A DNA stretch of 64,000 bases from Burkholderiales bacterium. Its GTDB lineage: Bacteria > Pseudomonadota > Gammaproteobacteria > Burkholderiales > JAEUOS01. The notes beneath the pieces were generated by a model. That model searched no databases, was not told the origin of the DNA, and was given only the letters and a program-made list of their open reading frames with translations. The stretch is taken from positions 433,847 to 497,846 of the forward strand of contig OZ257137.1 of NCBI GenBank assembly GCA_965279115.1, given 5' to 3'. Of the stretch, positions 25,506-45,234 are shown in pieces; positions within the stretch are counted from its first letter, which is position 1; the number at the start of each line of letters is the position of its first letter. The translations under genes were made by a program, and so were the position numbers.

Positions 25506-25626
25506 GGGTGAAATTCTACCCGACCGCCTGTCCGGCAACCGCCCTCTTGTGCTCGAGACAGGGGCTGCAAACCCGGATGGCAGTCCGGCAACAAGCCGGA
25601 CCGGTGCGCGCCGCGATGCAGAATTC

Positions 25627-25727
25627 GGTTGGCGAGCCTGACCCCGGCACTTGGGGTGATTGGTTATGGCTGCTTCGTTCCCGACCTGACCAGGTTCCCA
25701 AGCCTCAATGCGGGGGGGCCCGCCACC
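25627..25727 (-). ncRNA. ffs: signal recognition particle RNA (small/4.5S type)
   Basis: The minus strand contains CCUGGUCAGGUCGGGAACGAAGCAGCCAUAAC, the conserved domain IV (compare E. coli 4.5S ACCAGGUCAGGUCCGGAAGGAAGCAGCC). The 5' GGUGGCGGGCC pairs with the 3' GGCUCGCCAACC. The position upstream of dnaX is classical. Confidence 0.85.
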
Positions 25728-27160: not shown

Positions 27161-27458
27161 ACGCCACCGATGAGCACAGATGCTAGTGACACCGGTTTTC
27201 CGCTGCTCACATGAACTGCGACGGTTTTCAGAGGAGAAACGCGCGAAAAATTTCGCTTTTCCCTCTGTAAACCCGTTGACAAGGCATTCCGGAGTGTGCA
27301 TCCTTCGCGCTGTCACTCTCGGAGAGGGCATTTTTCAGAGTGGCAAGAGACGCAAAATCGTGTGCGGCCGGAATCAAGCGGCGCCGGTTTTGCGACTCTT
27401 GGCAAGTCAGATGCTCGAATCGTTCCGTCAAACTTCATCCTTTCAGGAGGAAATACGC

Positions 27459-27887
27459 ATGGCAACTGCCAAGAAAGCCGCAGCAAAGAAACCCGCAGCC
27501 AAGAAGCCGGCCGCCAAGAAACCCGCAGCCAAGAAAGTAGCCGCCAAGAAGCCGGCCGCCAAGAAGCCAGCGGCCAAGAAGCCCGCTGCCAAGAAGCCGG
27601 CCGCCAAGAAAGCCGCCGCGCCCAAGAAAAAGCGTGCCCCCAATGCGGCGTTCATGAAGCCGGTCACGCCGTCGGCCATCCTGGCCGCGGTCATCGGTGA
27701 GAAGCCCGCGCCGCGCACCGAAGTCACCAGCAAGATCTGGGCGTACATCAAGAAGAACGGCCTGCAGGACAAGGCCAACAAGCGCATGATCAACGCTGAC
27801 GACAAGCTCAAGGCCGTGTTCAACGGCAAGAAGCAGGTCTCGATGTTCGAGATGACCAAGCTGGTTTCGGCCCACCTCAAGGCCTGA
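27459..27887 (+). CDS. histone H1-like (AAKKP repeat) / SWIB-MDM2 domain fusion protein
   Basis: AGGAGG RBS, then MATAKKAAAKKPAAKKP... (about ten AAKK[PVA] units). The C-terminal part, PSAILAAVIGEKPAPRTEVTSKIWAYIKKNGLQD..INADDKLKAVFNGKKQVSMFEMTKLVSAHL, is a SWIB/MDM2 domain pattern. Confidence 0.85.
   Translation: MATAKKAAAKKPAAKKPAAKKPAAKKVAAKKPAAKKPAAKKPAAKKPAAKKAAAPKKKRAPNAAFMKPVTPSAILAAVIGEKPAPRTEVTSKIWAYIKKNGLQDKANKRMINADDKLKAVFNGKKQVSMFEMTKLVSAHLKA
27468..27632 (+). repeat. 15-nt tandem coding repeats (GCC AAG AAR CCN GCN) encoding AAKKP units
   Basis: Direct reading of 27468-27632. The units differ mainly at wobble positions. Confidence 0.85.
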
Positions 27888-28459: not shown

Positions 28460-29383
28460 ATGCAAAATTCTCATGCGAAGCAGGAACTTCGCCAGGCCCT
28501 GCCGCCGCTGGACTCGTTGCGCGGCTTCGAGGCGGCGGCGCGTCACCTGAGTTTCACCCGTGCGGCCGCGGACCTGTTCGTCACCCAATCGGCGATCAGC
28601 CGGCAGGTCAAGAGCGTCGAGTCGGCCATCGGCGTGCCGCTGTTCCAGCGCTTCAACCGCCGCCTCGAACTCACCCCGGCGGGTGAGCGCCTGTTCGGTG
28701 CGGTCAGCCGCGCACTGGCGGGGCTGGATGCCGCGATCGTCGATATCAAGGGGCCCCTCGCCAGTGTCGTCACGGTCACGACCCCGTTGTCCTTCGCGTC
28801 GCTGTGGCTGGTGCCGCGCCTGTCCGCGTTTCGCGCGCGCCATCCTGAGATCGACATCCGCATCGCCGCCAACGACAGCATCCTTTCGCTAGAACGCGAA
28901 CGCATGGACTGCGCGATCCGCTTCTGCGAGCCCGCTTCGGCGCCGCGCGATGCCGTGCCGCTGATGAGCGAAGAGGCGTTCCCGGTCGCCAGCCCCGCCC
29001 TGATCCGCAGGAAGCGCCTGAAAAGCCCGGCGGACCTGGCCGCGCATGTGCTGTTGCGCTATGCGGACTCCCACCTGGTGCCTTGGCTGGACTGGAGCAC
29101 CTGGCTCTCCGCCTGGGGCATGGCGGACCTGAAGCCGGCCGGCACTCTGACCTTCTCGCACTACGACCAGTTGATCGCCGCCGCGGTCGAAGGCGAAGGC
29201 GTGGCCATCGGCCGCACACCGCATGTGGCGCGCCTGGTGCGCCAGGGCAAGCTGGCGCTGCCATTCAACGAAAGGCTGGCGGCGGCGCGGCAGTACTTCG
29301 TGGTGGTGTCGCGCGGCAGCCGCGCGCGACCGGAGGTGGGTGCCTTCGCCGACTGGGTGCTGGCCGCCGCGCGCGGCGAATGA
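28460..29383 (+). CDS. LysR family transcriptional regulator (GcvA-like)
   Basis: LPPLDSLRGFEAAARHLSFTRAAADLFVTQSAISRQVKSVESAIGVPLFQR wHTH. 307 aa. Confidence 0.9.
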   Translation: MQNSHAKQELRQALPPLDSLRGFEAAARHLSFTRAAADLFVTQSAISRQVKSVESAIGVPLFQRFNRRLELTPAGERLFGAVSRALAGLDAAIVDIKGPLASVVTVTTPLSFASLWLVPRLSAFRARHPEIDIRIAANDSILSLERERMDCAIRFCEPASAPRDAVPLMSEEAFPVASPALIRRKRLKSPADLAAHVLLRYADSHLVPWLDWSTWLSAWGMADLKPAGTLTFSHYDQLIAAAVEGEGVAIGRTPHVARLVRQGKLALPFNERLAAARQYFVVVSRGSRARPEVGAFADWVLAAARGE

Positions 29384-29412
29384 ACCGCCGGCCCGACGCA
29401 GTCTTCGATACG

Positions 29413-30189
29413 CTACTTCAGGAAGCCGCTGGTGATTTCCACTGCCACGGACAATTCGTCATTGCGCGGGTCGTCGAGCGCCAGCAGGCGCCGCAGTTCC
29501 GGCGAGAGCGCCGCCTGGGTTTCCGGCCGCAACAGGCGTTTCTGGTACTGCTGCTGCGGCTTGTCGCCACGGCAGTAGAAGCTGTGCAGCGCGGCACGCG
29601 GCCGCCCGGTGTTGTTGGCCTCGCCGCCGTGCCAGAGGTGGGCGTTCATCACCACCACCGTGCCGGCACGGCCAGTGAGCAGGACCTCCCCCGGATGATG
29701 ATCGCGCGGGTTTTCGGGCAGGCGTTTCAGCAGGTGCGTGCCGGGCACCGCGCGCGTCGGTCCGTTCGCGGTGGTGAAGTCATCCAGCATCCAGATGCAG
29801 TTGCACACCCAGTAGCCGCGTTCGTCTGGGAGCGCGCCCATGTCGCAATGCAGGGGCTGACTGGTGCCGTTCATCGGCAGGGCGATGCGTACATTCAGGC
29901 TGGAGAGCTTGAAATCGGCGCCCAGCACCTGTCCCACCGCCGCGAGGATCGCCGGCATGGCGATGGCTTGCCGAAACACCTCCCCCTTGTCGACGCAGTT
30001 GGCCAGGCGCAGCGCGCCGGGTTCATGCTTGAACTCGGCCCCCGCGCGCTCGCCCTCGGCCGCCGTGATCTCGGCGATCGTGGCGCGCATTTGCGCCAGC
30101 ATCTGCGCCGGCATGAAGTCCGGCAGGACCGTATAGCCATTGGTCTCGAGTTCGCGCCGCGCCTGGGCGGGGATTTCCTGGATCTGCAT
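29413..30189 (-). CDS. phytanoyl-CoA dioxygenase (PhyH) family Fe(II)/2-oxoglutarate oxygenase
   Basis: GYTVLPDF, the H-x-D facial triad (PLHCDMG), and distal [26 protein letters not shown] 30189 (MQIQEIP) follows AAGGA. Confidence 0.75.
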
Positions 30190-30351
30190 TTCGGATTCCT
30201 TCAGAGAACCGGCCCGGCAATGGAGCAAGGCACGGCAGGGCCGCTCGCCACAGTTTATTATCCCGGGATGCCCCCGTGCTTGCGGCGCCTCCGGCCGCTT
30301 GTTACGATGGTTTGATCAGGCGCCGGTATGGGCCGCTCCAGCAAGGAACCC

Positions 30352-30885
30352 ATGGCCGATCCGTCCGACTCCGCTTTCGCTGCCCCGCCAGCCGCGCCGC
30401 TCAACCCGTATGCCTCGCCCAAGGCGGCAGTGGCGCACCAGGCGGGCGACGGCGCCGAACTCGCCGCGCGCTCGCAACGGCTCACTGCGGCGATCATGGA
30501 CTACCTGGTCTTTTTCGTTCCGCTGGGCGTTGCGCTGATCCCCATGTTCATGGCCTCCGGACGCATGGCCACCGGCGTCATCGCCGGGCTACTGGCGGGT
30601 GGCCTGGCGTTTCTCGCCATCGTCATACGCAACTGCCTTCTGCTGGCGGGCAATGGCCAGACCATCGGCAAGAAGGCGGTCGGCATCCGTGTGGTGCGTA
30701 CCGACGGCTCTGATGCCGGTTTTGTGCGCCTGTTCTTCCTGCGCGGCGGCCTGTCCTGGCTGCTGGCCGCGATTCCGGGGATAGGCAACCTTTATGCGCT
30801 GATCGATGTGCTGTTCATTTTCCGCGAAGACCGCCGCTGCCTGCACGACCTGATCGCCGACACCAAGGTGGTCGAAGCTGGATAA
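30352..30885 (+). CDS. RDD family membrane protein (first gene of the MoxR/DUF58 membrane operon)
   Basis: Pro/Ala-rich N-terminus with NPYASP, then RSQRLTAAIMDYLVFF..GQTIGKKAVGIRVV..CLHDLIADTKVV. ATG 30352 has an AAGGA RBS. The track start at 30328 is also possible. Confidence 0.8.
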   Translation: MADPSDSAFAAPPAAPLNPYASPKAAVAHQAGDGAELAARSQRLTAAIMDYLVFFVPLGVALIPMFMASGRMATGVIAGLLAGGLAFLAIVIRNCLLLAGNGQTIGKKAVGIRVVRTDGSDAGFVRLFFLRGGLSWLLAAIPGIGNLYALIDVLFIFREDRRCLHDLIADTKVVEAG

Positions 30886-30907
30886 CCGCACGCAGAGCGG
30901 AGTTGCG

Positions 30908-31591
30908 ATGCTCGACACGCTGCGTCGCGTACCCACGCCAGAGGGGTTCGAACTGACCTTGCGGCTGGCCGGGCCGGTGCCGCGCGCGCTGGCCTATGCG
31001 GTCGATCTCGCCATCAGGGTCGCTCTGTTCGCCGCCTTTTCGATGTCGCTGTCGCTGTTTCGCGGCGGCGGCACCGGCCTGATGCTGATCGCCGCCTTCC
31101 TGCTGGAATGGTTCTATCCGGTGGCGTTTGAAGTCTGGTGGTCCGGCGCCACCCCCGGCAAGCGCGCCTTCGGCCTGGCGGTGCTGGGCGATAACGGCAC
31201 GCCGGTGTCCTTCGGCGCCTCGGTCACCCGCAACCTGCTGCGCGCGGTCGACTTCCTGCCGATGCTGTATGCCTTCGGCCTGGTTTCCATGCTGCTGTCG
31301 CGCGACTTCAAGCGCCTCGGCGACCTTGCCGCCGGTACCATCGTGGTGTATCGCGACCGCCCTGGTGCAAGGGCCCCGATACCCGCCGCCCCGCCGCTGG
31401 CGCCGGCGGTGGCATTGAGCCTCGAGGAGCGCCGCGCCGTCCTTGACTTCGCCGAGCGCCATGCCACCCTCAGCGAGGAGCGCGCCGACGAGGTCGCCGC
31501 GCATGCCGTGCCGCTGCTACGCCGCGGCATGGCGCCGGCTCGCGCGCTGCTGGGCGTCGCCAACCACCAGCGCGGGGGCAAGCCGACATGA
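30908..31591 (+). CDS. RDD family membrane protein with C-terminal helical extension
   Basis: RALAYAVDLAIRV..GATPGKRAFGLAVLGDNG..RLGDLAAGTIVVYR. Confidence 0.8.
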   Translation: MLDTLRRVPTPEGFELTLRLAGPVPRALAYAVDLAIRVALFAAFSMSLSLFRGGGTGLMLIAAFLLEWFYPVAFEVWWSGATPGKRAFGLAVLGDNGTPVSFGASVTRNLLRAVDFLPMLYAFGLVSMLLSRDFKRLGDLAAGTIVVYRDRPGARAPIPAAPPLAPAVALSLEERRAVLDFAERHATLSEERADEVAAHAVPLLRRGMAPARALLGVANHQRGGKPT

Positions 31592-32577
31592 ACCAGGCCC
31601 AGTTCGAAGCCAGGCACACCGACGAGTGGCGCGAGTTCGAATCCTGGCTCGACGCCCTGGGCTCGCGCAAGCAGGCGTCCGCCGGCGTCAACGCGCGCCG
31701 CTGGCCGCATCGCTATCGCGCCGTGGCGCACCACCTGGCGCTCGCGCGCGACCGTGCCTACGGCCCCGAACTGGTGGACCGCCTGCAGCATCTCGCCCTG
31801 CGCGGCCACCAGGCGCTCTACGGCAGCCGCGGCAACGCCATCGGCGCGGTCATCGAATTCATCGGCAGCGGTTTTCCGAAGCTGGTGCGGCGCGAGTCGA
31901 CCTTTGTCTGGATCGCCATCGCGCTGCTGTTCATTCCGCTCCTGGGCCTGATCGCCGTGCTGCTGCGCTGGCCCGAATTCGTCCACTACCTGGCCAGTCC
32001 CGAGCAACTGTCGCAGTACGAGTCCATGTACGCGCCGTCGAACCGAGCGCTCGGCCCGCAGCACAAGGCCGAGAGCCAGGTGATGATGTTCGGCTACTAC
32101 ATCTGGAACAACGTCAAGATCGATTTCCAGTGCTTTGCCGGCGGCCTGCTGTTCGGCGTCGGCTCGGTCTTCTTCATGCTGTTCAACGGCATGATGATAG
32201 GCGCGGTGGCCGGCCATCTCACCCAGCTGGGCTACATCCCCACGTTCTGGGGATTCGTCGCCGGCCACAGTTCGTGGGAGCTGCTGGGCGCCGCCATTTC
32301 CGGCGCGGCCGGCCTGAAGATCGGGTGGGCCCTGATCGCGCCGGGACCGCATGCGCGCAAGGCGGCGCTCATGATCGCGTCGCGCACCGCGGTGCGCCTG
32401 CTCTACGGTGCCGCCGGCATGACCATCTGCGCGGCCTTCATCGAGGCGTTCTGGTCATCGCTGCGCAACCTGCCTGCCGAGCTCAAGTACGCCGTCGGCA
32501 TCGCGTTCTGGGTGTTGTTCCTGCTTTACTTCCTGTTCGCCGGCCGCAGCCGGGAGGCAGCCGTCAATGGAGATTGA
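31588..32577 (+). CDS. stage II sporulation protein M-like (DUF95) polytopic membrane protein
   Basis: ATGA overlap with the upstream gene. An N-terminal cytoplasmic helical region is followed by ~6 TM segments with IWNNVKIDFQCFAGGLLFGVGSVFFMLFNGMMIG and HSSWELLGAAISGAAG, typical of SpoIIM/DUF95. Confidence 0.7.
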   Translation: MNQAQFEARHTDEWREFESWLDALGSRKQASAGVNARRWPHRYRAVAHHLALARDRAYGPELVDRLQHLALRGHQALYGSRGNAIGAVIEFIGSGFPKLVRRESTFVWIAIALLFIPLLGLIAVLLRWPEFVHYLASPEQLSQYESMYAPSNRALGPQHKAESQVMMFGYYIWNNVKIDFQCFAGGLLFGVGSVFFMLFNGMMIGAVAGHLTQLGYIPTFWGFVAGHSSWELLGAAISGAAGLKIGWALIAPGPHARKAALMIASRTAVRLLYGAAGMTICAAFIEAFWSSLRNLPAELKYAVGIAFWVLFLLYFLFAGRSREAAVNGD

Positions 32578-34072
32578 CAAGCTCTCGCTGGCCCTGCGCG
32601 CGCGTAACGCCTGGGAGGCCTTCGACCTCGGCATTGCACTGGCGCGCCGCACCGGATTGCCGCTGTTCGCGGGTTTCGCCGTGCCCTACGTGATCTTCGC
32701 GCTCCTGGTCAATCTTGCCTTGTGGGGCCAGCCCGCGATGGCGGCCATCGTGGTGTGGTGGTTCAAGCCGGCTTTCGACCGCATCGCCCTGCACGTGCTG
32801 GCGCAGGCGGTGTTCGGCACCGCGCCGGGCACGCGCGCCATCCTGCGCAGCCTTGCCACGGTTCCGCGCAACGGGCTCTTGGCCTCGCTCACGGTGCAGC
32901 GCTTCGACTTCGCGCGCAGTTTCCACCTGCCGGTCGCCCAGCTCGAGGGACAGACCGGCCGTGCCGGCCGCGCGCGCCGCGCCCTGCTTGACCGGCGCAC
33001 CCGCAGCCATGCCGTCTGGCTGGCGATCGTGATCATCCACTTCCTCTATGTGCTGGTGCTCGGTTTCGACGGGCTGCTGCGACTGCTCGCGCCTGAAGGC
33101 ATGCACTTCGGCTTCAATTTCGGCGACCTGTTCGCCGGCCGATCGCAAGGCGACGATGGCCTCGCGTCCCAGTACCTCTTCAATGCCGCGCTGCTGGCGG
33201 CGGAATGCATCCTCGAACCGCTGTATGTGGCAGCCGGCTTCACCCTTTACCTGAGCCGCCGCACGTCGCTGGAAGGCTGGGACCTGGAGATCGCCTTCCG
33301 GCGCCTGGCTGCGCGCCATGGCGGCAAGGCCGCGACCATGCTGGCAATGCTGCTGGCGCTGGGATTGGCCGGCGGCGAATCCGCACAGGCGGCCACCGCA
33401 CCGGCGGCGAGCGCCGAGAAGCGCGCCATCGCCGAGATCCTCAAGTCACCGGATTTTCGCGAGTACGAGGAGACAAAATCCTGGAAACGCAAGGGCGAAC
33501 CTCCGGACGAGGTTCCGGAGTTGCGGCGCCCTGACCGCCTGTTCGAATTTCTCGGCAAGCTCGCGCAGGTCATGGCGGAATTGATGCGCATTCTCGCCTG
33601 GGGCGCCGCCATTTTTGTCGCCGGCTGGCTTCTTTACCAGATCAGCCAGCGCCTTGGCTGGTTCCGCGGCGCCTTCAAGCGCGCCGAACCCTGGCGGCCC
33701 GAAGTGATGTTCGGCATGGACCTGCGCCCGGAGTCGCTGCCCGCCGACATCGCCGCCGCCGCGCGCGCAAGACTGGCCGAGGATGACCTGCGCGGCGCCC
33801 TGTCGCTCCTGTATCGCGGCGCGCTCGCCGGACTGGTGCATGAACGCAACCTCGCCCTGGGCGAGGGCGACACCGAAGGCGATTGCGTGCGCCGCGTCGG
33901 CGCGACCGCCCCGGCGGCACTTGCAACCTTCTTCGCGCGCCTGGTCGATACCTGGGGATTGCTCGCGTATGGTCGCCGCATGCCGGAGGCCAGTGACGTC
34001 GGGCATCTGGTCAATGAATGGGAGCAACATTTTGGCGGTGCCCGCCCGGTTGCCCCGGGAGCGCAGGCATGA
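32567..34072 (+). CDS. membrane protein with C-terminal DUF4129-like domain
   Basis: GGGAGG RBS and an 11-nt overlap with the upstream gene. Several N-terminal TM segments. The C-terminal region (ARARLAEDDLRGALSLLYRGALAGLVHERNLALGEGDTEGDC) matches the DUF4129 helix pattern seen at the end of TgpA-type transglutaminases. Confidence 0.6.
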   Translation: MEIDKLSLALRARNAWEAFDLGIALARRTGLPLFAGFAVPYVIFALLVNLALWGQPAMAAIVVWWFKPAFDRIALHVLAQAVFGTAPGTRAILRSLATVPRNGLLASLTVQRFDFARSFHLPVAQLEGQTGRAGRARRALLDRRTRSHAVWLAIVIIHFLYVLVLGFDGLLRLLAPEGMHFGFNFGDLFAGRSQGDDGLASQYLFNAALLAAECILEPLYVAAGFTLYLSRRTSLEGWDLEIAFRRLAARHGGKAATMLAMLLALGLAGGESAQAATAPAASAEKRAIAEILKSPDFREYEETKSWKRKGEPPDEVPELRRPDRLFEFLGKLAQVMAELMRILAWGAAIFVAGWLLYQISQRLGWFRGAFKRAEPWRPEVMFGMDLRPESLPADIAAAARARLAEDDLRGALSLLYRGALAGLVHERNLALGEGDTEGDCVRRVGATAPAALATFFARLVDTWGLLAYGRRMPEASDVGHLVNEWEQHFGGARPVAPGAQA

Positions 34073-35253
34073 AGCGCGTTCCCCTCGTGCCCGCGCTCGC
34101 AGTCCTGCTGGCCATCGGTGCCGCCGTGTGGTGGTGGACGAATTTCGAGCAGGTCGCCGAGACGATCTACGTCGGGCTCTCGGGCAAGGCGAAAAGCGAC
34201 CCGCACCTGGCATTCAAGCGGCTGCTGGCGGCCAGCGGGCTGCACTTCGAGGAGACCGCGCCTGCCCAGACGCCGGATGCCGCGATCGCCGCCTTGCCGC
34301 GCGGCGGTGTTCTGCTGCTGCAGACGCGCCGCGACGTGTTGATGACGCCGGCGCGCATCGAGGCGCTGTTGCGCTGGGTATCCGCCGGCGGCCACCTGAT
34401 CGTCGCGGCCGAGCCGGTATCCCGCGCCGATCCGCTGCTCGCGCAACTGGGCATCGCGCGCGAGCTCATGCGCGCCCCGGCGGCCAAGGGTGGCAAGCCC
34501 GGCCCGCTGACACGACGCATCGCGCTGCCGCTGGCGGGTGCTGCAAGGCCGCTGGAAATCGAAATGACGGCCCCGATCATCCTCAAGGCGTCCCGCCTTG
34601 CCGAGTGGTCGGCCGACGACGCCTTCGGCACCCGCATGCTTTCGCAGAAGCGCCAGGCAGGGCGCGTTACCGTCGCGGCCGATCTCGGCTGGATCGCCTA
34701 TCGCGGCACCGGCGGCAACCCCGATCCGGGAAGGCAACCCGGCCATATCGGCAAACTCGATCACGCCGAAGCCATCGTCGCCCTGGCGCGCCTGGACGCA
34801 CGCGCCGCCGGCGTGCGCTTGCTGGGCGGCGGTTCCGCGCTTTCGCTGTGGGTCTGGCTGCAGGAAAACGCGTGGGCCGCGCTGGCCAGCCTGGGCATGT
34901 TGCTGCTGCTGTGGCTGTGGCGCGTGGTGCCGCGTTTCGGCCCGCTGGCGGCGCCCGAGTCGGGCGGCGAGCTGCGCCTTTCGAGCCACCTCGAAGCCAG
35001 CGGCAGGTTCTATCGCCGCCATCTGCCGATCGAGGCGATCCACCAGGGACTGTCGCGCGCATTCCTGCAGCGCCTGGCGGAGCGCCGCCCCGCCGTCGCC
35101 GCACGCGCGGCACGCGAGCGCAATGCCGAACTGGCACGCATGTGCGGTGCCAGCCCGCAAGCGGTCGCGCGCGCGCTCGACGTGCCGGCCACCTCGGCGG
35201 GCGACTTCATTCGCAGCGCCATCCTCATCAAACGCCTGGAGCAGGCGCTGTGA
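34069..35253 (+). CDS. DUF4350-like protein (N-terminal TM anchor)
   Basis: ATGA overlap. The TM anchor ALAVLLAIGAAVWWW is followed by LPRGGVLLLQTRRDVLMTPARIEALLRWVSAGGHLIVAAEP, the DUF4350 core. Confidence 0.6.
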   Translation: MKRVPLVPALAVLLAIGAAVWWWTNFEQVAETIYVGLSGKAKSDPHLAFKRLLAASGLHFEETAPAQTPDAAIAALPRGGVLLLQTRRDVLMTPARIEALLRWVSAGGHLIVAAEPVSRADPLLAQLGIARELMRAPAAKGGKPGPLTRRIALPLAGAARPLEIEMTAPIILKASRLAEWSADDAFGTRMLSQKRQAGRVTVAADLGWIAYRGTGGNPDPGRQPGHIGKLDHAEAIVALARLDARAAGVRLLGGGSALSLWVWLQENAWAALASLGMLLLLWLWRVVPRFGPLAAPESGGELRLSSHLEASGRFYRRHLPIEAIHQGLSRAFLQRLAERRPAVAARAARERNAELARMCGASPQAVARALDVPATSAGDFIRSAILIKRLEQAL

Positions 35254-35313
35254 ACCCGCGTCCGGCGGCCATAGCGCCCTGCCGAAAACCCCGCTTCGCC
35301 CAAAGGAACCCCC

Positions 35314-36288
35314 ATGCCGCTCTCAGATGAACAAACCAGCCAGGCCCAGCGCTTCCTCACCTCGGTGAGGGCAGAGGTATCCGGCGCCGTGATCGGCCAG
35401 CCCGACGTCATCGACCAGGTGCTCATCGCGCTGGCCGCCGCGGGCCATGTGCTGATCGAAGGCGTGCCGGGTCTGGGCAAGACGCTTCTGGTGCGGGCGA
35501 TTTCGCGCACCTTCGACGGCGCATTCGGGCGCATCCAGTTCACCCCCGACCTGATGCCGGCCGACGTCACCGGCCACGCCATCTATGACCCTTCCAGCGG
35601 CCAGTTCACCACCCGCAAGGGACCGGTGTTCACCAACCTGCTCCTGGCCGACGAGATCAACCGCGCGCCTGCCAAGACCCAGGCCGCACTGCTGGAGGTG
35701 ATGCAGGAGGCGCAGGTCACCATCGACGGGGTATCGCATCCGCTGCCGGCGCCCTTCATGGTGCTGGCCACGCAAAACCCGGTGGAACAGGAAGGCACCT
35801 ATCCCCTGCCCGAGGCGCAGCTCGACCGCTTCCTGCTCAAGGTGCGCATCGGCTACCCCTCGCATGCCGACGAGGTGGCGATGATAGGCGCGGTCACCGG
35901 CGGCAAGGCCGGGGACAAGCTCGCGGTCGACAATGTGCGCGCGCTGGTCAAGCCGCAGGCCGTGCAGGCCCTGCAGCAGATGGCGGCGCAGGTGCAGGTG
36001 GAGGCGGAGGTGCTCGACTACGCGGTGCGCATCGTCCGCAAGACCCGCGAGTTCCCCGCCTTTTCCAGCGGCGCCGGATCGCGCGGCGGCCTGGCGCTGG
36101 TGCGCGCGGCGCGCGCGCAGGCCCTGTTCGGCGGCCGCGGCTTTGTCACACCCGACGACATCAAGCAGGTCGCGCTGCCCGCCCTGCGCCACCGCGTGCG
36201 CCCCGCGCCCGAGCAGGAGATCGAGGGCCGCGATGCCGACGTCCTGCTTGCGGCCATGCTTGAACAGGTGCCGGCGCCGCGCAAATGA
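35314..36288 (+). CDS. MoxR family AAA+ ATPase
   Basis: Walker A GVPGLGKT, Walker B LLADEINRA, VLATQNPVEQEGTYPLPEAQLDRF, and arginine finger region GAGSRGGLALVRAARA. Confidence 0.92.
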   Translation: MPLSDEQTSQAQRFLTSVRAEVSGAVIGQPDVIDQVLIALAAAGHVLIEGVPGLGKTLLVRAISRTFDGAFGRIQFTPDLMPADVTGHAIYDPSSGQFTTRKGPVFTNLLLADEINRAPAKTQAALLEVMQEAQVTIDGVSHPLPAPFMVLATQNPVEQEGTYPLPEAQLDRFLLKVRIGYPSHADEVAMIGAVTGGKAGDKLAVDNVRALVKPQAVQALQQMAAQVQVEAEVLDYAVRIVRKTREFPAFSSGAGSRGGLALVRAARAQALFGGRGFVTPDDIKQVALPALRHRVRPAPEQEIEGRDADVLLAAMLEQVPAPRK

Positions 36289-36316
36289 CTTCCCGGCGAT
36301 CCGCCTGACCGACAAG

Positions 36317-37636
36317 ATGTCGCGCCCGTCTCCCACGCTCCTCGCCCTGGCGTTCGCCTGGCTTGCGCTTGGCGCACTGGCGGCCGCCTTGCCACCGGTC
36401 ACCGACGTATGGCGCGTCGCCGGTCTGCTTGCGGCCGTGGCGATGGTCGCGGACTGGCTGCTCGTCCGCGCGGATGCGGGCCTCACGGTCGAGCGCAGCC
36501 TGCCCGGCTCGTTGCCTGTCGGTGTGGCCGGCGAAGTCCAACTGTCGGTCGCCAATCGCGGACGCCGCAACCTGCGCCTGACCCTGCATGACCACCATCC
36601 GGCCGAGGGCACTGCCGAGGGCCTGCCGCTTTCGCTTGCACTCCCGTCAGGCAAGGTGGCGCGCACCGTCTACCGGTTCACGCCGCTGCAACGCGGTGCC
36701 GCCAGCTTCGGCCTGTGCGACCTCAGGGTGCTGTCGCCGCTGCGCCTGTGGGAGCGCAAGATCCGATGCGGGACGCCCACGCCGGTGCGGGTGTTTCCCA
36801 ACTTCGCGGCGCTCACGCGCTACGCGCTTTTCGCCACCGACAACCGCCTGTCGCAGATCGGCATCCTGACGCGCCGGCGTCGCGGCGAAGGGCTGGACTT
36901 CCACCAGTTGCGCGAGTACCGCGAGGGCGATTCGCAACGCCAGATCGACTGGAACGCTACTTCGCGCATGCGCCGCCTGATCACCCGCGAATATCGCGAG
37001 GAACGCGACCAGCAGATCGTGTTCCTGATCGACTGCGGCCGGCGCATGTCGGCCAGCGACACCGACGCGCGCCACCTGCGCCATTTCGACCATGTGTTGA
37101 ACGCCGCCCTGCTGCTGGGCTATGTGAGCCTGCGCCAGGGCGATGCCGTCGGCTACATGACCTTTGGCACCGCATCGCCGCGCTTCCTCGCCCCGCGCAA
37201 GTCGGGCGCCACCGTCAACCTGCTGCTGGCGGGCCTCTACGACATCCAGCCCGGCCTGATGATGCCCGACTACTACCAGGCGGCACTGGATTGCTCGAAG
37301 CGCCTGTCGCGCCGCGCCCTGGTGATCATCCTCACCAACCTGCGCGACGAGGACGACGACGAACTCGCCCCCGCCCTGAAGCTGCTCTCCGCCCGGCACC
37401 TGGTAATGCTGGCGTCGCTGCGCGAACCGTCCCTCGATGAAACCCTTGCGCGCCCGGTCACCGGCCAGGACAGTGCCCTCACCTATGCCGCCGCGCTCGA
37501 CTACCGCGAGGAGCGCAACCGCGCCTTGAAGCGCGTCCAGCTGGGTGGCGCGCAGGTACTTGATGTCACGCCGAATTCGCTGCCGGTGGCGCTGGTGAAC
37601 CGCTACCTGGAGATCAAGCGCGCCGGGATGCTTTGA
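36317..37636 (+). CDS. DUF58 domain-containing protein (VWA-like partner of MoxR)
   Basis: Two N-terminal TM segments, then GEGLDFHQLREYREGDSQRQIDWNATSRMRRLITREYREERDQQIVFLIDCGRRMS, the DUF58 signature. Internal ATG 36317 of track ORF 35933..37636. Confidence 0.88.
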   Translation: MSRPSPTLLALAFAWLALGALAAALPPVTDVWRVAGLLAAVAMVADWLLVRADAGLTVERSLPGSLPVGVAGEVQLSVANRGRRNLRLTLHDHHPAEGTAEGLPLSLALPSGKVARTVYRFTPLQRGAASFGLCDLRVLSPLRLWERKIRCGTPTPVRVFPNFAALTRYALFATDNRLSQIGILTRRRRGEGLDFHQLREYREGDSQRQIDWNATSRMRRLITREYREERDQQIVFLIDCGRRMSASDTDARHLRHFDHVLNAALLLGYVSLRQGDAVGYMTFGTASPRFLAPRKSGATVNLLLAGLYDIQPGLMMPDYYQAALDCSKRLSRRALVIILTNLRDEDDDELAPALKLLSARHLVMLASLREPSLDETLARPVTGQDSALTYAAALDYREERNRALKRVQLGGAQVLDVTPNSLPVALVNRYLEIKRAGML

Positions 37637-37637
37637 G

Positions 37638-38258
37638 ATGGCAGGAACCAACAATCCATACGCCCCGCCGCAGGCCGACTTGTCCGGCGGCGGCTTGCGC
37701 GACGCCCTGTTCAGGGATGGCAAGGTCCTGGTTGCCGCGCGCGATGCCGCCTTTCCGGCACGCTGTATCCGCTGCAACGCCGCCACCGGTACCCGGACCT
37801 ATTCGCGCAAGCTCAGCTGGACACCCCCCGGCTGGTCCGGCCTGTATGCGCTCGGGCTGCTCATGCCGGTGCATCCGGCCTTTGGCCTGGGCTTGCTGGC
37901 CGCATTGATCATGACAAACGTGAAGCGCAGGTCAGCCGAGGTGGAGTACCCGCTGTGCGCCCGCCACGCACGCCGGCTCGAGGTAGGACGCATCGTGCTC
38001 TGCGGCGGCATCGCCGTCATGCTGCCGCTGTTTGCATGGGCCTTCATGAGCCTGGGAGGCACAACGCTTTACTACCGATTGCCTCCGGAAGCCGCGATGG
38101 CAGTATTCGCATGCGTGTTTCCGTGGGGGATTTTCGTGGGGCTCTCCAACCGCACCATCATCGCAAAGAAAATCACCGACACGACGCTTCACCTGGGGGG
38201 CTGCGGCGACGCCTTCCTCGCTTCGCTGCCGACGCTGGCGGCAACGAAGCGCGATTGA
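37638..38258 (+). CDS. hypothetical membrane protein, last gene of the MoxR/DUF58 operon
   Basis: The ATG is 1 nt after the DUF58 stop. N-terminal NPYAPPQADL motif, C-x-x-C (CIRCNA) plus a distal C-x-x-H (CARH), and 3-4 hydrophobic segments. Confidence 0.6.
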   Translation: MAGTNNPYAPPQADLSGGGLRDALFRDGKVLVAARDAAFPARCIRCNAATGTRTYSRKLSWTPPGWSGLYALGLLMPVHPAFGLGLLAALIMTNVKRRSAEVEYPLCARHARRLEVGRIVLCGGIAVMLPLFAWAFMSLGGTTLYYRLPPEAAMAVFACVFPWGIFVGLSNRTIIAKKITDTTLHLGGCGDAFLASLPTLAATKRD

Positions 38259-39515
38259 TCAACCAGCCGCCGCCTGCGCGGTGGCGAGATAAGCCTCCAT
38301 CACCCGCGTCGGATCCGCCTTGAGTTTGGCCTTCCAGGGACCCAGCTTCGCGCGGGTCTGGATCAGGCCGCGCAGCGCGCCCACATGGTCGGTCAGGCCC
38401 AGCGAGGTGGCGCCGATGAGGTGATCGCCCTTGAACTCCAGGCGCAGGTACTTGAAGGCCGCCTCGTCCTTGAGCTCGGCGAATTCGCCGCCCTCCGCCG
38501 GCGTCGCCCCCCACCACTGCCCGAACGAGGATGAGATCAGCCCGAGGGTGTCGAGCACGTTCATCGACAGGCTGCCGGAGGAACGCGCCGAGCGTCCCGC
38601 CATATTGAGCGCCGCAATGCGCGACTCGTCGGCCGCCACCGGCTGGATCGCGTTGACGGTCTTCTTGCCGGTGGAAAAATCGAGCGACTGCGAAACATCA
38701 CCGGCCGCATACACGCCGGGCACGCTGGTCTGCATGGTCTCGTCGACCAGCACGCCTTCCTCGCAGGCGATGCCGCTACCGTCGAGAAAGCCGATATTTG
38801 GCTTGACGCCGGTGGCCGAGATGATGAGGTCGGTCTCGATCACGCTGCCGTTGGAAAGCTTCACCCGCATGTGGGCGCCGGCCGCTTCGATCGCCTCGGC
38901 TCTTGCATTGACATGCACGCGGATGCCCTGTTTCTCGCACCAGGTCTTGATGAGCCCGCCCGCGCCTTCGGTCATCATGCGCGGCACCATGCGGTTGCCG
39001 GCCTCCACCACGGTGAGCTCGACACCGCGCGCGGCCAGCGACTCCATGATGATGCAGCCGATGAAACCGGCGCCCAGTTGCAGGACCCGCGCGCCCTTGG
39101 GCGTTTTCTGCATGATCCAGCGCGCGTCTTCGAGCGTCCAGCATGGATGCACATTGGGCAGGTCGATGCCGGGAATCGGCGGCGCCATCGGCCGCGATCC
39201 GGTGGCGATGAGCAGGCGGTCATAGGGCAGCGACTGGCCGTTGGTCAGGCGTACCGTCTTGAGCTTGGTATCGACGGCTTCGGCGCGGGCACAAAGCAGG
39301 TTGATGCCCTGTTCAGCCCAATGCCGCTCGCCCTTGCGCAGCCAGGTGCCGCGCTCGTCGATGTTGCCGATGAGCAGGTAGGGAATCGCCATGCGGGAAT
39401 ACGGCGGCACCGGCTCGTCACCGATGAGGGTGATGCTATCCCGGGGGGCCGCCTTGCGGAGGGTTTCGGCGGCGATGACGCCGGCGGGGCCGTTGCCGAT
39501 GATGACGTGATGCAT
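38259..39515 (-). CDS. aorC: FAD/NAD(P)-binding pyridine nucleotide-disulfide oxidoreductase family subunit of aldehyde oxidoreductase (AorC-like)
   Basis: HHVIIGNGPAGVIAAE (FAD GxGxxG), QLGAGFIGCIIMESL (NAD), and YAAGDV. Its 418 aa size and its position after aorA and aorB match the three-subunit bacterial AOR. Confidence 0.75.
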   Translation of the reverse strand: MHHVIIGNGPAGVIAAETLRKAAPRDSITLIGDEPVPPYSRMAIPYLLIGNIDERGTWLRKGERHWAEQGINLLCARAEAVDTKLKTVRLTNGQSLPYDRLLIATGSRPMAPPIPGIDLPNVHPCWTLEDARWIMQKTPKGARVLQLGAGFIGCIIMESLAARGVELTVVEAGNRMVPRMMTEGAGGLIKTWCEKQGIRVHVNARAEAIEAAGAHMRVKLSNGSVIETDLIISATGVKPNIGFLDGSGIACEEGVLVDETMQTSVPGVYAAGDVSQSLDFSTGKKTVNAIQPVAADESRIAALNMAGRSARSSGSLSMNVLDTLGLISSSFGQWWGATPAEGGEFAELKDEAAFKYLRLEFKGDHLIGATSLGLTDHVGALRGLIQTRAKLGPWKAKLKADPTRVMEAYLATAQAAAG

Positions 39516-39542
39516 GTGGAACCTCGAATGTGCAACAGACGA

Positions 39543-39575
39543 TAAAAAGGGGCGATGTCTTGCAACACCGCCCCT
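39543..39575 (-). terminator. terminator-like hairpin plus T-tract between aorB and aorC (possible attenuator)
   Basis: The minus strand reads AGGGGCG-N14-CGCCCCT followed by TTTTTAT. It lies 22 nt after the aorB stop and 28 nt before the aorC ATG. Confidence 0.45.
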
Positions 39576-39596
39576 CGCCTTACGGTTTCAAGCGGC

Positions 39597-41444
39597 CTAC
39601 AGTCCCAGGCGGGCCTGCGTTTCCGCAGTCGGCTTGCCGCCGGTATCCCAGCCGCGCAGCTGGTAGTACTCGGGCAGCATCTTGTCGAGCCCGGACACCA
39701 GGCCCTTGGCGGGACCGGTCTTGGCCGGTTCCTTGAGCAGGCGCTCGGGCAGGGTGTCGTCCTTCTCGGTGAAGCCGGCGGCATTGTTGAACTGGCGCTC
39801 CATGTTCCAGATGCGCTCGCCCACCACGCCCAGGTTTTCCACCGACCAGTCGCCCTCGCAGGCGGCCGCGAGTTGCGGCGAGAGGTCCTGGAGCGTCCAG
39901 GCGAAGGTGGTGAAGATGCAGGTGCCGGAGGAGTCGAAAGCCGCGGTGGCGTCCTGGAAGGCCTTGACCAGACCGGCCTTGCCCTCGGTGACCAGCGGAT
40001 CGGTCTTGACCGGAATACCCAGAACTTCGGAGGCCACGGTGTAGCCGCGCAGGTGGCAGGCGCCGCGGTTGGAGGTGGCGTAGGCCAGGCCCATGCCCTG
40101 GATGCCGCGCCCGTCGTAGGCAGGGAATTCCTGGCCCTTGACCGACATCGACAGGTTGGGATGCCCGTACTTGGCCGTGAGCCGCTTGGAGCCCATGCCG
40201 ATTTCCTTGCCGAAGCCTTCGCCACGGGCGACCTGCTCGGCGAAGAAGGTGAGCGCCTTGGCCGAACCGAACGGTGCCTCGATGCCAAGTTGTTCCTTGG
40301 TGAGCACACCCATTTCGTAGAGCTCCATCACCGCCCCGACGGTCGCGCCGAAGGAGATGGGATCGAAAGCGTCCTCGTTGCAGATGAAGTTGGCGTAGGT
40401 CAGCGCCTCGAGGTCGTTGACCCCGTTGGCAGATCCCAGCGCCCAGGCAGCTTCGTACTCCAGGCCACCGGAGGCGCCCCAGTACTCGGGCTTGTTCACC
40501 ACCGTGTAGTGGGTCTCGTCGATCTTGGAGATGCGGCCACAGGCGATGGTGCAGCCGAAGCAGGCCTGGTTGTTGACCAGGTTGGGCTTGCCGTCGGTCT
40601 TGCGCGGCGCATGCATGGCTTCGGCCGAGATGTCCTTCGCGCCCTCGAACTGGATGTCCTTGTGGTTGCGCGTGGGCATGGCGCCGATCTCGTTGATCAC
40701 GTTCATCAGCACCTGGGTGCCGAACTTCGGCAGGCCCTGGCCAGTGACGGCGTTGTCGGCGAGCACTTTCTTGGCGGCCTTGGTAGCCGCCATGAAGGCC
40801 TTGGGATCCTTGATGCCCGAAACACCGATGGTGCCGCGCACGGTGATGGCCTTGAGGTTCTTCGATCCCATCACCGTGCCGACGCCGGAGCGGCCGGCGG
40901 CGCGATGGAGGTCATTGACCACGCAGGCGAACAGCGCGCCGGTTTCGCCGGCACGGCCGATCGAGGACACGCGCATCAGCGGATCCTGGTGCTTTTTCTT
41001 GAGCGTCTCTTCGGTGACCCAGGTGGTCTTGCCCCAGAGGTCGGCGGCATCCAGCAGTTCTGCCTTGTCGTTCTGGATGTTGAGGTAAACCGGCTTGGCC
41101 GACTTGCCCTCGAAAATGATCATGTCCCAGCCGGCCATTTTCAGCTCGGCGCCCCAGTAGCCGCCCGAGTTGGAGCAGGCAATGGCGCCGGTGAGCGGGC
41201 CCTTGGTGATGACGGAATAGCGCCCGCCAGTGGAGGCCATCGTGCCGGTGAGCGGGCCGGTGGCGAAGATCAGCTTGTTGTCGGCCGACAGCGGATCGAC
41301 CTTGGGGTCGACTTCACTGACGAAATACTTGGTGGCGAGACCGCGCTGCCCGAGGTACTTCTTTGCCCAATCCATGTTGAGCGGCTCGGAGGTGCAAGTG
41401 CCCTTGGAAAGGTTGACGCGCAACAGTTTTTTTGCCCAGGTCAT
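39597..41444 (-). CDS. aorB: tungsten (pterin) aldehyde:ferredoxin oxidoreductase family catalytic subunit (AorB-like)
   Basis: 615 aa. N-terminus WAKKLLRVNLSKGT...GGRGLATKY, and internal blocks GRSGVGTVMGSKNLKAI, CFGCTIACGR (4Fe-4S Cys) and CHLRGYT, typical of the AOR family. Confidence 0.9.
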   Translation of the reverse strand: MTWAKKLLRVNLSKGTCTSEPLNMDWAKKYLGQRGLATKYFVSEVDPKVDPLSADNKLIFATGPLTGTMASTGGRYSVITKGPLTGAIACSNSGGYWGAELKMAGWDMIIFEGKSAKPVYLNIQNDKAELLDAADLWGKTTWVTEETLKKKHQDPLMRVSSIGRAGETGALFACVVNDLHRAAGRSGVGTVMGSKNLKAITVRGTIGVSGIKDPKAFMAATKAAKKVLADNAVTGQGLPKFGTQVLMNVINEIGAMPTRNHKDIQFEGAKDISAEAMHAPRKTDGKPNLVNNQACFGCTIACGRISKIDETHYTVVNKPEYWGASGGLEYEAAWALGSANGVNDLEALTYANFICNEDAFDPISFGATVGAVMELYEMGVLTKEQLGIEAPFGSAKALTFFAEQVARGEGFGKEIGMGSKRLTAKYGHPNLSMSVKGQEFPAYDGRGIQGMGLAYATSNRGACHLRGYTVASEVLGIPVKTDPLVTEGKAGLVKAFQDATAAFDSSGTCIFTTFAWTLQDLSPQLAAACEGDWSVENLGVVGERIWNMERQFNNAAGFTEKDDTLPERLLKEPAKTGPAKGLVSGLDKMLPEYYQLRGWDTGGKPTAETQARLGL

Positions 41445-41464
41445 GTTTTTCTCCTTCGTCTCGT

Positions 41465-41941
41465 TCAGCCGGCCTTGGGGGCGTTGTCAAGCTTGGCGGC
41501 CCATTGCTTCATGCGCTCAAGTCCGGTCCAGTCCGCGTCCACATAGGTGATGGCGCCGGTGGGGCAGGCGTCCGCGCAGGCGGGGTCACCGCCGCACAGG
41601 TCGCACTTCTGCACCTTGCCGGTGTCCTGCACATAGTTGACGGTACCGAACGGGCAGGAAATGGTGCACACCTTGCAGCCGACACACACATCGTCGATCA
41701 CCACCTTGGCGCCGGTGTTCTTGTCGACCTTGATGGCCTCCACCGGGCAGGCGTGCATGCACCAGGCTTCATCGCACTGGGTGCAGGTGTAGGGCACCTT
41801 GCGTCCGGTATGGTGGAAATCGAACACCTTGATGCGCGATTTCGCGGTGTTGAAGGTGCCGTAGTTCTCGTAGGAACACGCCATTTCGCACTGCAAACAG
41901 CCGGTGCACTTGGCCGGGTCGATGTGTAGCGACTTCTGCAT
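41465..41941 (-). CDS. aorA: 4Fe-4S dicluster ferredoxin-like subunit (AorA-like)
   Basis: Four Cys clusters (CTGCLQCEMAC, CTQCDEAWCMHACP, CVGCKVCTISCP, CDLCGGDPACADACP). 158 aa. Sits 20 nt upstream of aorB. Confidence 0.85.
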   Translation of the reverse strand: MQKSLHIDPAKCTGCLQCEMACSYENYGTFNTAKSRIKVFDFHHTGRKVPYTCTQCDEAWCMHACPVEAIKVDKNTGAKVVIDDVCVGCKVCTISCPFGTVNYVQDTGKVQKCDLCGGDPACADACPTGAITYVDADWTGLERMKQWAAKLDNAPKAG

Positions 41942-42276: not shown

Positions 42277-43098
42277 GTGCTCTACCTCTCCCGGCAAATG
42301 CGCCGCCCGCTATTCCTCGAAGGGGAGGCCGGCGTGGGCAAGACCGAACTGGCCAAGGTGCTGGCCGAGGTCGAAGACACGCAGCTGATCCGCCTGCAGT
42401 GCTACGAAGGCCTGGGGGTGGCCGAGGCCGCCTACGAATGGAACGCCGCGCGCCAGCTGATGGAAATCCGCATGGCCGAGGCCGCGCACGTTACCGACCG
42501 CGACGCAATCTCGCGCGACCTATACAGGCGCGAGATGCTGATCGAGCGCCCCCTGTTGCAGGCGCTCACCCAGCCGAAATCGCCGGTGCTCCTGATTGAC
42601 GAACTCGACCGCGCCGACGAGCCCTTCGAGGCCTACCTGCTGGAACTGCTGGCCGAATACCAGATCACCGTTCCCGAACTGGGCACCATCAAGGCGATGT
42701 ACCCGCCGATGGTGGTGATCACCTCCAACCGCACCCGCGAAATCCGCGACGCGTTGAAGCGCCGCTGCCTGTACCACTGGGTGGAGTTTCCCGACGCACG
42801 GCGCGAACTGGAAATCGTGCGCCGCAAGGCCCCGGGCGCCGCAGCCGCCATCTCGACCCAGGCAGTGGAGTTCGTCCAGCGCCTGCGCACGGTGGAGCTC
42901 TACAAGCTGCCCGGCGTGGCCGAGACCATCGACTGGGTCAATGCGTTGACTGCGCTCAACGTGCTCGCGCTCGACCCGGATTCGGTGCAGGACACGCTCG
43001 GCGTGCTGCTTAAGTACCAGGAAGACGTCGAGCGCGTGATGGAGGGTGAAGGCGCGCGGATTCTCGACGAACTGCGGGCGGCGGCGATCCTGCGCTGA
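42277..43098 (+). CDS. MoxR-type AAA+ ATPase, CoxD-like
   Basis: Walker A GEAGVGKT, Walker B LLIDELDRA, and VVITSNRTREIRDALKRRC. GTG 42277 is the first canonical start but leaves only 16 aa before Walker A. Homolog-like sequence (IDAIKQLQEQLAGREYVCDDRLAT) continues in frame back to about 42199, where only ATC/CTC codons occur after a GCAGGA RBS-like site. Confidence 0.8.
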   Translation: MLYLSRQMRRPLFLEGEAGVGKTELAKVLAEVEDTQLIRLQCYEGLGVAEAAYEWNAARQLMEIRMAEAAHVTDRDAISRDLYRREMLIERPLLQALTQPKSPVLLIDELDRADEPFEAYLLELLAEYQITVPELGTIKAMYPPMVVITSNRTREIRDALKRRCLYHWVEFPDARRELEIVRRKAPGAAAAISTQAVEFVQRLRTVELYKLPGVAETIDWVNALTALNVLALDPDSVQDTLGVLLKYQEDVERVMEGEGARILDELRAAAILR

Positions 43099-43446
43099 GA
43101 ATCCCCTGTTAGTGCATGCGGGTGATGGCGTGATGGTCATCACCTTGACGCAAGCCGCCGAATGCGATGAGATCGCGTAGGAAAACCTTTGATCGGCAAA
43201 GGAAGCCTCGCGGTTGCCTGCGCCGGAGGAGTTCGCGATATGCGTACCTGGGCCCTGTGTTTCCGACAGCCGCCGCGGACAGCGACTGGTCGCCGGCTTC
43301 GTTCGCGCGCGAGGGAGGATTTCGAGCGGACCGCGCAGGAAATCGATTCGTTCCGGTGCGCCACATGATCGCCCTGATACATCTGCGACGGTTCAGATCG
43401 GACGGGCGCGCTGCTGCCTGCCCGATCTGAAATCCAGGGCGCGCGC

Positions 43447-44712: not shown

Positions 44713-44744
44713 TTCAATCAAATCGAGCGACGTTCATCGAGTGA

Positions 44745-45221: not shown

Positions 45222-45234
45222 GACACTCGCGCCC

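Follow-up and report, generated by a model that had tools for sequence, protein, structure and literature searches.

The window analysed here is a 64-kb stretch of the genome of a Burkholderiales bacterium (contig OZ257137.1 of GenBank assembly GCA_965279115.1, positions 433,847 to 497,846 of the forward strand). Eight closely packed plus-strand open reading frames (ORFs) fill its positions 30328-38258 and encode a MoxR-type AAA+ ATPase, a DUF58 protein and a set of membrane proteins that includes members of the RDD, SpoIIM, DUF4129 and DUF4350 families. The locus is a genuine, strongly conserved six-gene module (g2-g7) with two local additions (g1 and g8). The eight genes are as follows.

30328..30885, plus strand: g1, accessory RDD-family membrane protein with three transmembrane (TM) segments (Pfam RDD, 1e-17)
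30908..31591, plus strand: g2, core RDD-family membrane protein with three TM segments (Pfam RDD, 3e-17)
31588..32577, plus strand: g3, core SpoIIM/DUF95-family polytopic membrane protein (Pfam SpoIIM, 3e-31)
32567..34072, plus strand: g4, core all-helical protein with six TM helices and a C-terminal DUF4129 domain (Pfam DUF4129, 7e-7, residues 415-486)
34069..35253, plus strand: g5, core DUF4350 protein (Pfam DUF4350, 3e-11)
35314..36288, plus strand: g6, core MoxR-type AAA+ ATPase, cytoplasmic (AAA_3, 1e-64; AAA_lid_2, 2e-20)
36317..37636, plus strand: g7, core DUF58 protein (Pfam DUF58, 2e-25)
37638..38258, plus strand: g8, accessory small membrane protein with approximately three TM segments and no Pfam match

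A preliminary description of this DNA, made from the sequence alone, had delineated the same eight same-strand frames and their junctions, and both were reproduced exactly. With starts matching the orthologue alignments (34069 for g5 and 36317 for g7), the junctions from g1/g2 to g7/g8 measure 22, -4 (ATGA), -11, -4 (ATGA), 60, 28 and 1 nt. The GC content at third codon positions lies between 0.80 and 0.90 in all eight frames, as coding sequence should show in this window of approximately 65% GC. The domain calls made earlier all hold, as the hidden Markov model (HMM) matches of g1-g7 to Pfam lie above the curated gathering cut-offs. Six of the products had been counted as membrane proteins; hydropathy and the AlphaFold2 model of g7 raise this number to seven of the eight, the DUF58 protein possessing an N-terminal TM hairpin. 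MoxR had also been taken for the only enzymatic component, in agreement with which none of the seven non-ATPase products receives a name from NCBIfam.

The conservation of the locus is broad. A homologue search with g4 retrieved 721 proteins, and a scan with the g4 alignment over one genome per GTDB species found a g4 relative encoded in at least 581 species. The best 80 of these comprise Burkholderiales, Rhodocyclales, many Pseudomonas, Stutzerimonas, Ectopseudomonas, Ectothiorhodospiraceae and Thiotrichales, while the closest named relatives of the window proteins come from uncultured Burkholderiales and other Betaproteobacteria. Gene neighborhoods were surveyed with tblastn and HMM searches at 82 loci, 72 of which were long enough for the purpose, the remaining 10 being cut by contig ends. 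Synteny in other genomes is extensive: RDD, SpoIIM, DUF4129, DUF4350, MoxR and DUF58 genes occur together on one strand in 71 of the 72 sufficiently long loci, in an order that is constant in all but two loci, where the RDD gene lies downstream; one surveyed locus has no adjacent RDD gene. Six-gene loci are also found in Methylocaldum marinum and on a betaproteobacterial contig. The g2/g3 and g3/g4 genes overlap in most of the 82 loci (medians of -4 and -14 nt, the starts being approximate), the median of the g5/g6 junction is -4 nt with crudely placed starts, and the MoxR and DUF58 genes are adjacent in 72 loci. Given its presence in 71 of 72 loci, the six-gene arrangement is far beyond chance, and the conserved unit consists of g2-g7.

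The two remaining genes behave differently. Although g1 and g2 both belong to the RDD family, they share no significant similarity, and it is g2 that is the orthologue of the conserved RDD gene, with a counterpart in 80 of the 82 loci and orthologues that are 69% (locus L003) and 49% (locus L001) identical. A g1 gene is present in a single surveyed locus, with no counterpart in L001 or L003, and g8 in none of the 82, whereas all eight genes persist in a relative of 94% identity. Only 10 homologues of g8 were detected, and those at 26-35% identity adjoin hslVU or penicillin-binding protein genes instead of MoxR. Because both genes are confined to the closest relatives and the distant g8 homologues lie in unrelated contexts, g1 and g8 are recent lineage-specific additions, which are probably co-transcribed with the core here. 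Of the eight-gene unit proposed earlier, the tight linkage therefore stands, but the conserved part is limited to six genes. The non-conservation of g1 and g8, together with the gaps of 60 and 28 nt that flank moxR, could be taken to mean that the adjacency is fortuitous or that the eight genes do not make up one functional unit. The chance that this is so is next to negligible, and for the core the idea is refuted by synteny, as the six genes accompany each other in 71 of 72 loci distributed over Burkholderiales, Rhodocyclales, Pseudomonas, Methylocaldum, Thiotrichales and Ectothiorhodospiraceae.

The 82 loci show no recurrent gene for an enzyme, a regulator or a cargo beside the six-gene core. 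The sole other recurrent neighbor is a membrane protein of approximately 270 amino acids (protein X, DUF7847-like, 4e-10), encoded upstream of RDD in 12 of the 29 non-Pseudomonas loci. Its gene occupies positions 15078-15884 in L001 and 7432-8253 in L003; the window does not have it and carries g1 in that place. A relationship of protein X to the N-terminus of g4, to RDD or to SpoIIM was considered and rejected, as comparison showed no relation. Downstream of the module, Methylocaldum has an OmpR-type two-component pair and CreD.

The ATPase encoded by g6 is a MoxR-class protein: the AAA_3 core and lid are present, the Walker A (GVPGLGKT) and Walker B (LLADEINRA) motifs are intact and conserved in 75 orthologues, its closest solved structure is 2R44 (5.5e-73), and a DUF58/VWA gene starts immediately downstream. 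A secondary Pfam match to bpMoxR (2e-10) brings to mind conflict or defense systems of the MoxR-vWA ternary type, and work cited in PMC12067865 connects MoxR-vWA systems with biological conflict. It is nevertheless extremely improbable that the module is such a system. The AAA_3 match is far stronger than that to bpMoxR, no β-propeller or effector domains are present according to Pfam, and PADLOC gives only marginal P-loop matches. In addition, hundreds of species carry the module on the chromosome in syntenic form, and a tblastn search of 72,556 plasmids with g5 as the query retrieved no copy. Like fortuitous adjacency, a role in defense is effectively excluded.

The partner of the ATPase, g7, matches DUF58 with 90 bits against a cut-off of 23.4, and has no sequence match among solved structures. 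Its AlphaFold2 model (predicted local distance difference test score, pLDDT, of 83.5) consists of a TM hairpin (residues 6-51), a β-sandwich (56-160), an arginine-rich and almost invariant loop of low model confidence (186-227), and a VWA α/β domain (233-436). In Foldseek searches, the sandwich resembles Ig-like, macroglobulin and CARDB domains, while residues 233-436 match the VWA domains of Rpn10, Ku80, TFIIH p44 and NorD with E values of 1e-5 to 1e-6; the NorD matches are to the NorQD complexes 9qhd_G and 9qhg_G (E of approximately 1e-5). Orthologues of g7 carry precomputed matches to PF13519 (VWA_2). The metal ion-dependent adhesion site, or MIDAS, which normally follows the pattern DxSxS...T...D, is non-canonical in g7, as the corresponding position at the end of β-1 is occupied by D239-C240-G241-R242-R243, a sequence that is invariant in 60 orthologues. 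A 2025 review considers it still unclear what DUF58 does beside MoxR (PMC12067865), and a 2026 bioRxiv paper on predicted protein-protein interactions of DUF proteins contains nothing on DUF58.

The resemblance of the VWA domain of g7 to NorD is what would be expected if the pair were a chaperone for cofactor insertion or enzyme maturation, dedicated to a client encoded elsewhere and using the membrane proteins as a scaffold or delivery platform; all characterized MoxR/VWA pairs serve a defined client enzyme (PMC9976466). Such a role is quite improbable here, considering that no enzyme gene is conserved beside the core across the 82 loci and that the metal-binding serines of MIDAS are missing from g7. 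Besides, the four co-inherited membrane proteins can more simply be understood as the clients themselves.

Among these membrane proteins, g4 was modeled as all-helical with six TM helices (pLDDT of 82.7). The positive-inside rule suggests that both termini are located in the cytoplasm, which would also place the DUF4129 bundle there. Invariant residues cluster in two acidic patches, LEGWDLE (235-241) and GDTEGDC (434-440), on the putative cytoplasmic side. The link to TgpA-type transglutaminases proposed in the preliminary description comes down to the common DUF4129 domain: this is the only domain found in g4 by Pfam, the model is all-helical, and no transglutaminase is among its structural matches, so that g4 does not have the transglutaminase core with a Cys-His-Asp triad that defines the TgpA type. 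Nor is a HEPN nuclease claimed, as the R...H spacing is Rx7H and the histidine is not invariant.

The DUF4350 protein g5 has TM segments at residues 1-24 (an N-terminal TM segment or signal anchor) and 268-288, between which lies a predicted periplasmic flavodoxin-like (GldG-like) domain that is poorly conserved. The most conserved part of the protein is its predicted cytoplasmic tail (PRFGP...H) just past the second TM segment, with R289, G291, H307 and A310. The family is large (1858 clusters at 50% identity, E<=1e-3). DUF4350 has been related to GldG and flavodoxin, GldG being an accessory subunit of the gliding-motility ATP-binding cassette (ABC) transporter (PMC5898192). Long DUF4350 homologues were inspected for Rosetta-stone fusions; none were found, the extra length being due to insertions inside the domain.

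In both g4 and g5, the invariant residues fall mainly into segments that the positive-inside rule puts in the cytoplasm, whereas the periplasmic parts are poorly conserved; it is thus the membrane itself and its predicted cytoplasmic side that hold most of the conservation. A docking fold common to the cytoplasmic domains of g2, g3, g4 and g5 was rejected, as profile-profile comparison finds none.

The SpoIIM match of g3 reaches 109 bits against a cut-off of 26.9, and orthologues carry precomputed matches to PF28475 and PF01944. The protein starts with a predicted cytoplasmic domain of approximately 100 amino acids, which is assigned to DUF8413 in relatives. The Pfam family is shared with Bacillus subtilis SpoIIM, which is part of the SpoIID/SpoIIM/SpoIIP engulfment machine but does not have the additional N-terminal domain, and SpoIID and SpoIIP are encoded neither in the cluster nor in its flanks. 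The occurrence of SpoIIM in a non-sporulating bacterium had been considered telling; such homologues are, however, common in non-sporulating organisms, where they "appear to perform a different function" (PMC5898192), and their presence is no surprise. The core RDD protein g2 ends in a predicted cytoplasmic tail of approximately 80 amino acids.

One RDD protein is reportedly a cation/proton antiporter. Since g2, g3 and g4 span the membrane several times and have conserved charged residues within TM helices (E217-P218 in g4 and a G-H...E-L motif in the TM region of g3), the module might serve transport or export, with the RDD and/or SpoIIM-like protein as a channel or carrier, DUF4350 as a periplasmic accessory component, and MoxR/DUF58 responsible for gating or assembly. 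Both the kinship of DUF4350 with GldG and the proposal of the archaeal core as a secretion system (PMC5898192) are in favor of this view, which overlaps with the 'novel secretion system' envisaged by Makarova et al. It is nonetheless unlikely, as the conserved set includes no ABC ATPase, permease, secretin, outer-membrane component or recognizable cargo gene, and the model of g4 resembles no transporter in PDB.

Related neighborhoods have been noticed in the literature. Full-text searches retrieved no functional characterization of this gene set, so the earlier statement that it has no assigned role is upheld as far as function is concerned. The neighborhood itself is not new, having been noted before (PMC5898192, PMC8191103). 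In Archaea, an operon encoding arCOG01314 (DUF4350), MoxR (COG0714) and a protein with Ig and vWA domains was predicted by Makarova, Galperin and Koonin in 2015 to form a secretion or membrane-remodeling complex, and bacterial SpoIIM homologues were found to adjoin a vWA protein and a COG0714 ATPase (PMC5898192). The operon described here resembles the archaeal one in its anchored DUF4350 protein with an extracytoplasmic flavodoxin/GldG-like domain, the adjacent MoxR, and the combination of Ig-like and vWA domains in one protein. It differs from it in the RDD, SpoIIM-like and DUF4129 membrane proteins that act as partners, while the S-layer-like and Ig-domain proteins of Archaea (arCOG02884, PF07760) are found neither in g1-g8 nor among the recurrent neighbors.

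A second parallel comes from a different phylum. The genes BB28_RS01875-01900 of Mycobacterium chelonae encode SpoIIM, RDD, DUF58, MoxR, DUF4350 and a membrane protein, are strongly co-regulated in RNA-seq, and were mapped to Rv3689-Rv3695 (the moxR2 region) of M. tuberculosis (PMC8191103). The likeness of the mycobacterial cluster is one of annotated Pfam sets, as taken from an annotation table, and the gene orientation in M. tuberculosis differs, as two of the tags carry a 'c' suffix (Rv3694c).

As in NorQ/NorD, CbbQ/CbbO, RavA/ViaA and CoxD/CoxE, a MoxR-class ATPase is encoded alongside a partner of VWA fold. The partners in those pairs are soluble proteins whose MIDAS is a canonical DxSxS-T-D and whose enzyme client is known, whereas g7 is membrane-anchored and has D-C-G-R-R instead. 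A DUF58 gene directly following MoxR is also characteristic of the Bat (Bacteroides aerotolerance) and other MRP-subfamily moxR-DUF58-VWA-TPR operons, as well as of the mycobacterial moxR1-DUF58-vWA and bifidobacterial PFNA (Pkb2-FN3-MoxR-DUF58-transglutaminase) clusters (PMC11834572, PMC12067865). Unlike in Bat and PFNA, there is no BatA/BatB-type VWA protein, TPR protein (BatC, BatE), kinase, FN3 or transglutaminase, and the accompanying membrane proteins are entirely different; past g7, only g8 is encoded before a convergent gene.

Taken together, these features may tentatively be accounted for, with somewhat less than an even chance, by a membrane-tethered MoxR/VWA remodeling motor that acts on cytoplasmic domains of the co-encoded membrane proteins. 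The RDD, SpoIIM-like, DUF4129, DUF4350, MoxR and DUF58 proteins would constitute a six-component inner-membrane system, extended in this lineage by g1 and g8. The cytoplasmic MoxR AAA+ ring would be tethered at the membrane by DUF58, itself anchored through the N-terminal TM hairpin, with its Ig-like and VWA domains facing the cytoplasm. In keeping with proposals on NorQ/NorD and other MoxR/VWA pairs, it would be the VWA domain that links ATP hydrolysis by the ring to the target it has bound. In the general MoxR/VWA model derived from the study of NorQD, a finger of the VWA protein is inserted in the pore of the ring, and its MIDAS face is placed on an acidic patch of the target (PMC9976466). 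The likeliest targets here would be the DUF4129 bundle of g4 with the LEGWDLE and GDTEGDC patches, the tail of g5 with its PRFGP...H motif, and the domain at the N-terminus of g3. The replacement of the MIDAS serines by an invariant glycine and Arg-Arg, along with the invariant acidic patches of g4, suggests that docking could be independent of metal and proceed through arginine-carboxylate contacts rather than through a bound ion. ATP-driven remodeling might assemble or switch the membrane complex, and its output might be the assembly, export or remodeling of an envelope component. The output is placed on the envelope side because the GldG-like domain of DUF4350 is the only sizeable periplasmic part; this domain and the prediction of Makarova et al. 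for Archaea both point to an envelope-directed role in secretion or membrane remodeling. By analogy, the envelope-remodeling or complex-assembly machine suggested by the preliminary description is plausible and in line with the published prediction.

Several points weigh against the remodeling motor. The contacts among the operon proteins and the identity of the binding partners are inferred, and the topology was derived from hydropathy, the positive-inside rule and monomer AlphaFold2 models only. As MIDAS is non-canonical, binding of a target in the manner of NorD may not apply to g7. In a Foldseek search against PDB, the model of g4 gave nothing with E <0.3, the top weak matches being HEPN-type four-helix bundles to the DUF4129 part, and no conserved neighbor in the 82 loci suggests a substrate. 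The vWA protein of Archaea was taken by Makarova et al. to be secreted (PMC5898192), in contrast to the TM hairpin of g7 and the cytoplasmic VWA domain supposed here. Finally, the hints available from mycobacteria are indirect and weak, and literature searches with the M. tuberculosis locus tags yielded nothing but omics tables: the divisome protein Rv0954 brings down Rv3694c and Rv3695 in co-immunoprecipitation, Rv3691 is needed for slow growth of BCG, and a single-nucleotide variant in Rv3690 was recorded in one D-cycloserine-resistant double mutant.

A more far-reaching version of the remodeling motor, which is rather doubtful, would make the module a new class of secretion or membrane-remodeling apparatus. 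The membrane-tethered MoxR/DUF58 motor would rely on an adhesion site that is arginine-based and independent of metal, and would power the assembly or gating of the RDD/SpoIIM/DUF4129/DUF4350 complex, which in turn would export or remodel an envelope component. Such an apparatus would be common to Proteobacteria and Actinobacteria (including M. tuberculosis) and exist in a reduced form in Archaea.

The neighborhood type is not new with this locus, nor does the locus establish a new principle; its value consists in the clean definition of core versus accessory genes and in the replacement of the DUF58 MIDAS by an invariant D-C-G-R-R. With at least 581 species carrying the module, and a set of the same annotation in M. 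tuberculosis, its solution would give functions to five uncharacterized or poorly understood families (RDD, non-sporulation SpoIIM, DUF4129, DUF4350 and DUF58), and would put to the test the prediction, now ten years old, of a new secretion or membrane-remodeling system. Its occurrence in tractable, culturable Pseudomonas in particular makes it a good 'dark matter' target.

The accessory proteins have some features of their own. The N-terminal tail of g1 is rich in proline and alanine and includes NPYASP; its start may be the second ATG (30352), because in the 94%-identical relative the gene was called at a length of 178 amino acids. The g8 protein combines an N-terminal NPYAPP with a CxxC...CxxH knuckle, and has no match in Pfam, NCBIfam or PADLOC (the best Pfam hit being DZR_2 at E 0.11). 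Its family keeps R-C-x2-C-N (42-47), C-x2-H (107-110) and a C-terminal G...L..LP motif; from the sequence, the Cys/His motifs, which precede the TM helices, resemble a small zinc knuckle. The N-terminal NPYA[S/P]P is present in both g1 (residues 26-31, 30403-30420) and g8 (residues 6-11, 37653-37670), which are the only two matches to NPY-x(1,2)-P in six frames of the window, and N-P-Y-A is invariant in 11 of 11 members of the g8 family. The motif may be a recognition tag common to g1 and g8.

The block is delimited by the following features.

29413-30228, minus strand: PhyH-family dioxygenase gene, divergent, at the upstream border of the block
30229..30327, plus strand: intergenic stretch separating g1 from the divergent PhyH gene, which probably holds the promoter of the block
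38259-39515, minus strand: flavoprotein gene, convergent, at the downstream border of the block

The intergenic region contains TTGCGG-N17-TACGAT at approximately 30280-30308, a putative promoter only, as the site is too weak to pass a consensus scan. The same kind of scan found one terminator-like site in the block, a weak one at 33093 inside g4, which is fewer than in shuffled sequence, and Rfam gives no match in the block or near it. Between the SWIB/HC2 gene (27180-27887) and g1, a LysR gene (plus strand) and the PhyH gene (minus strand) occupy 28460-30228, whereas in the relative L089/L090 the block directly follows the SWIB gene, pointing to a local insertion or deletion at the upstream border of the operon.

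Downstream, the window encodes a second AAA+/VWA pair, composed of a CoxD-like AAA_5 ATPase (42277-43098, plus strand) and a VWA_CoxE protein (45235-46449, plus strand; 1.4e-52). The pair is divergent from a set of flavoprotein, aldehyde:ferredoxin oxidoreductase and 4Fe-4S ferredoxin genes (38259-41941, minus strand), and may be a maturation factor for a tungsten- or molybdenum-pterin enzyme. The two genes are separated by approximately 2.1 kb (43099-45234) in which no long ORF has a Pfam match, and this insertion shows no terminal repeats and no Rfam match. The CoxD-like and CoxE-like genes adjoin each other in L089, the 94%-identical relative, and the alignment breaks just past the stop codon of the ATPase. 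On the other side of the block, a bacterial small signal recognition particle RNA (RF00169, 69.9 bits) at 25628-25724 (minus strand) lies directly upstream of dnaX (23886-25538, minus strand), which is an ordinary arrangement.

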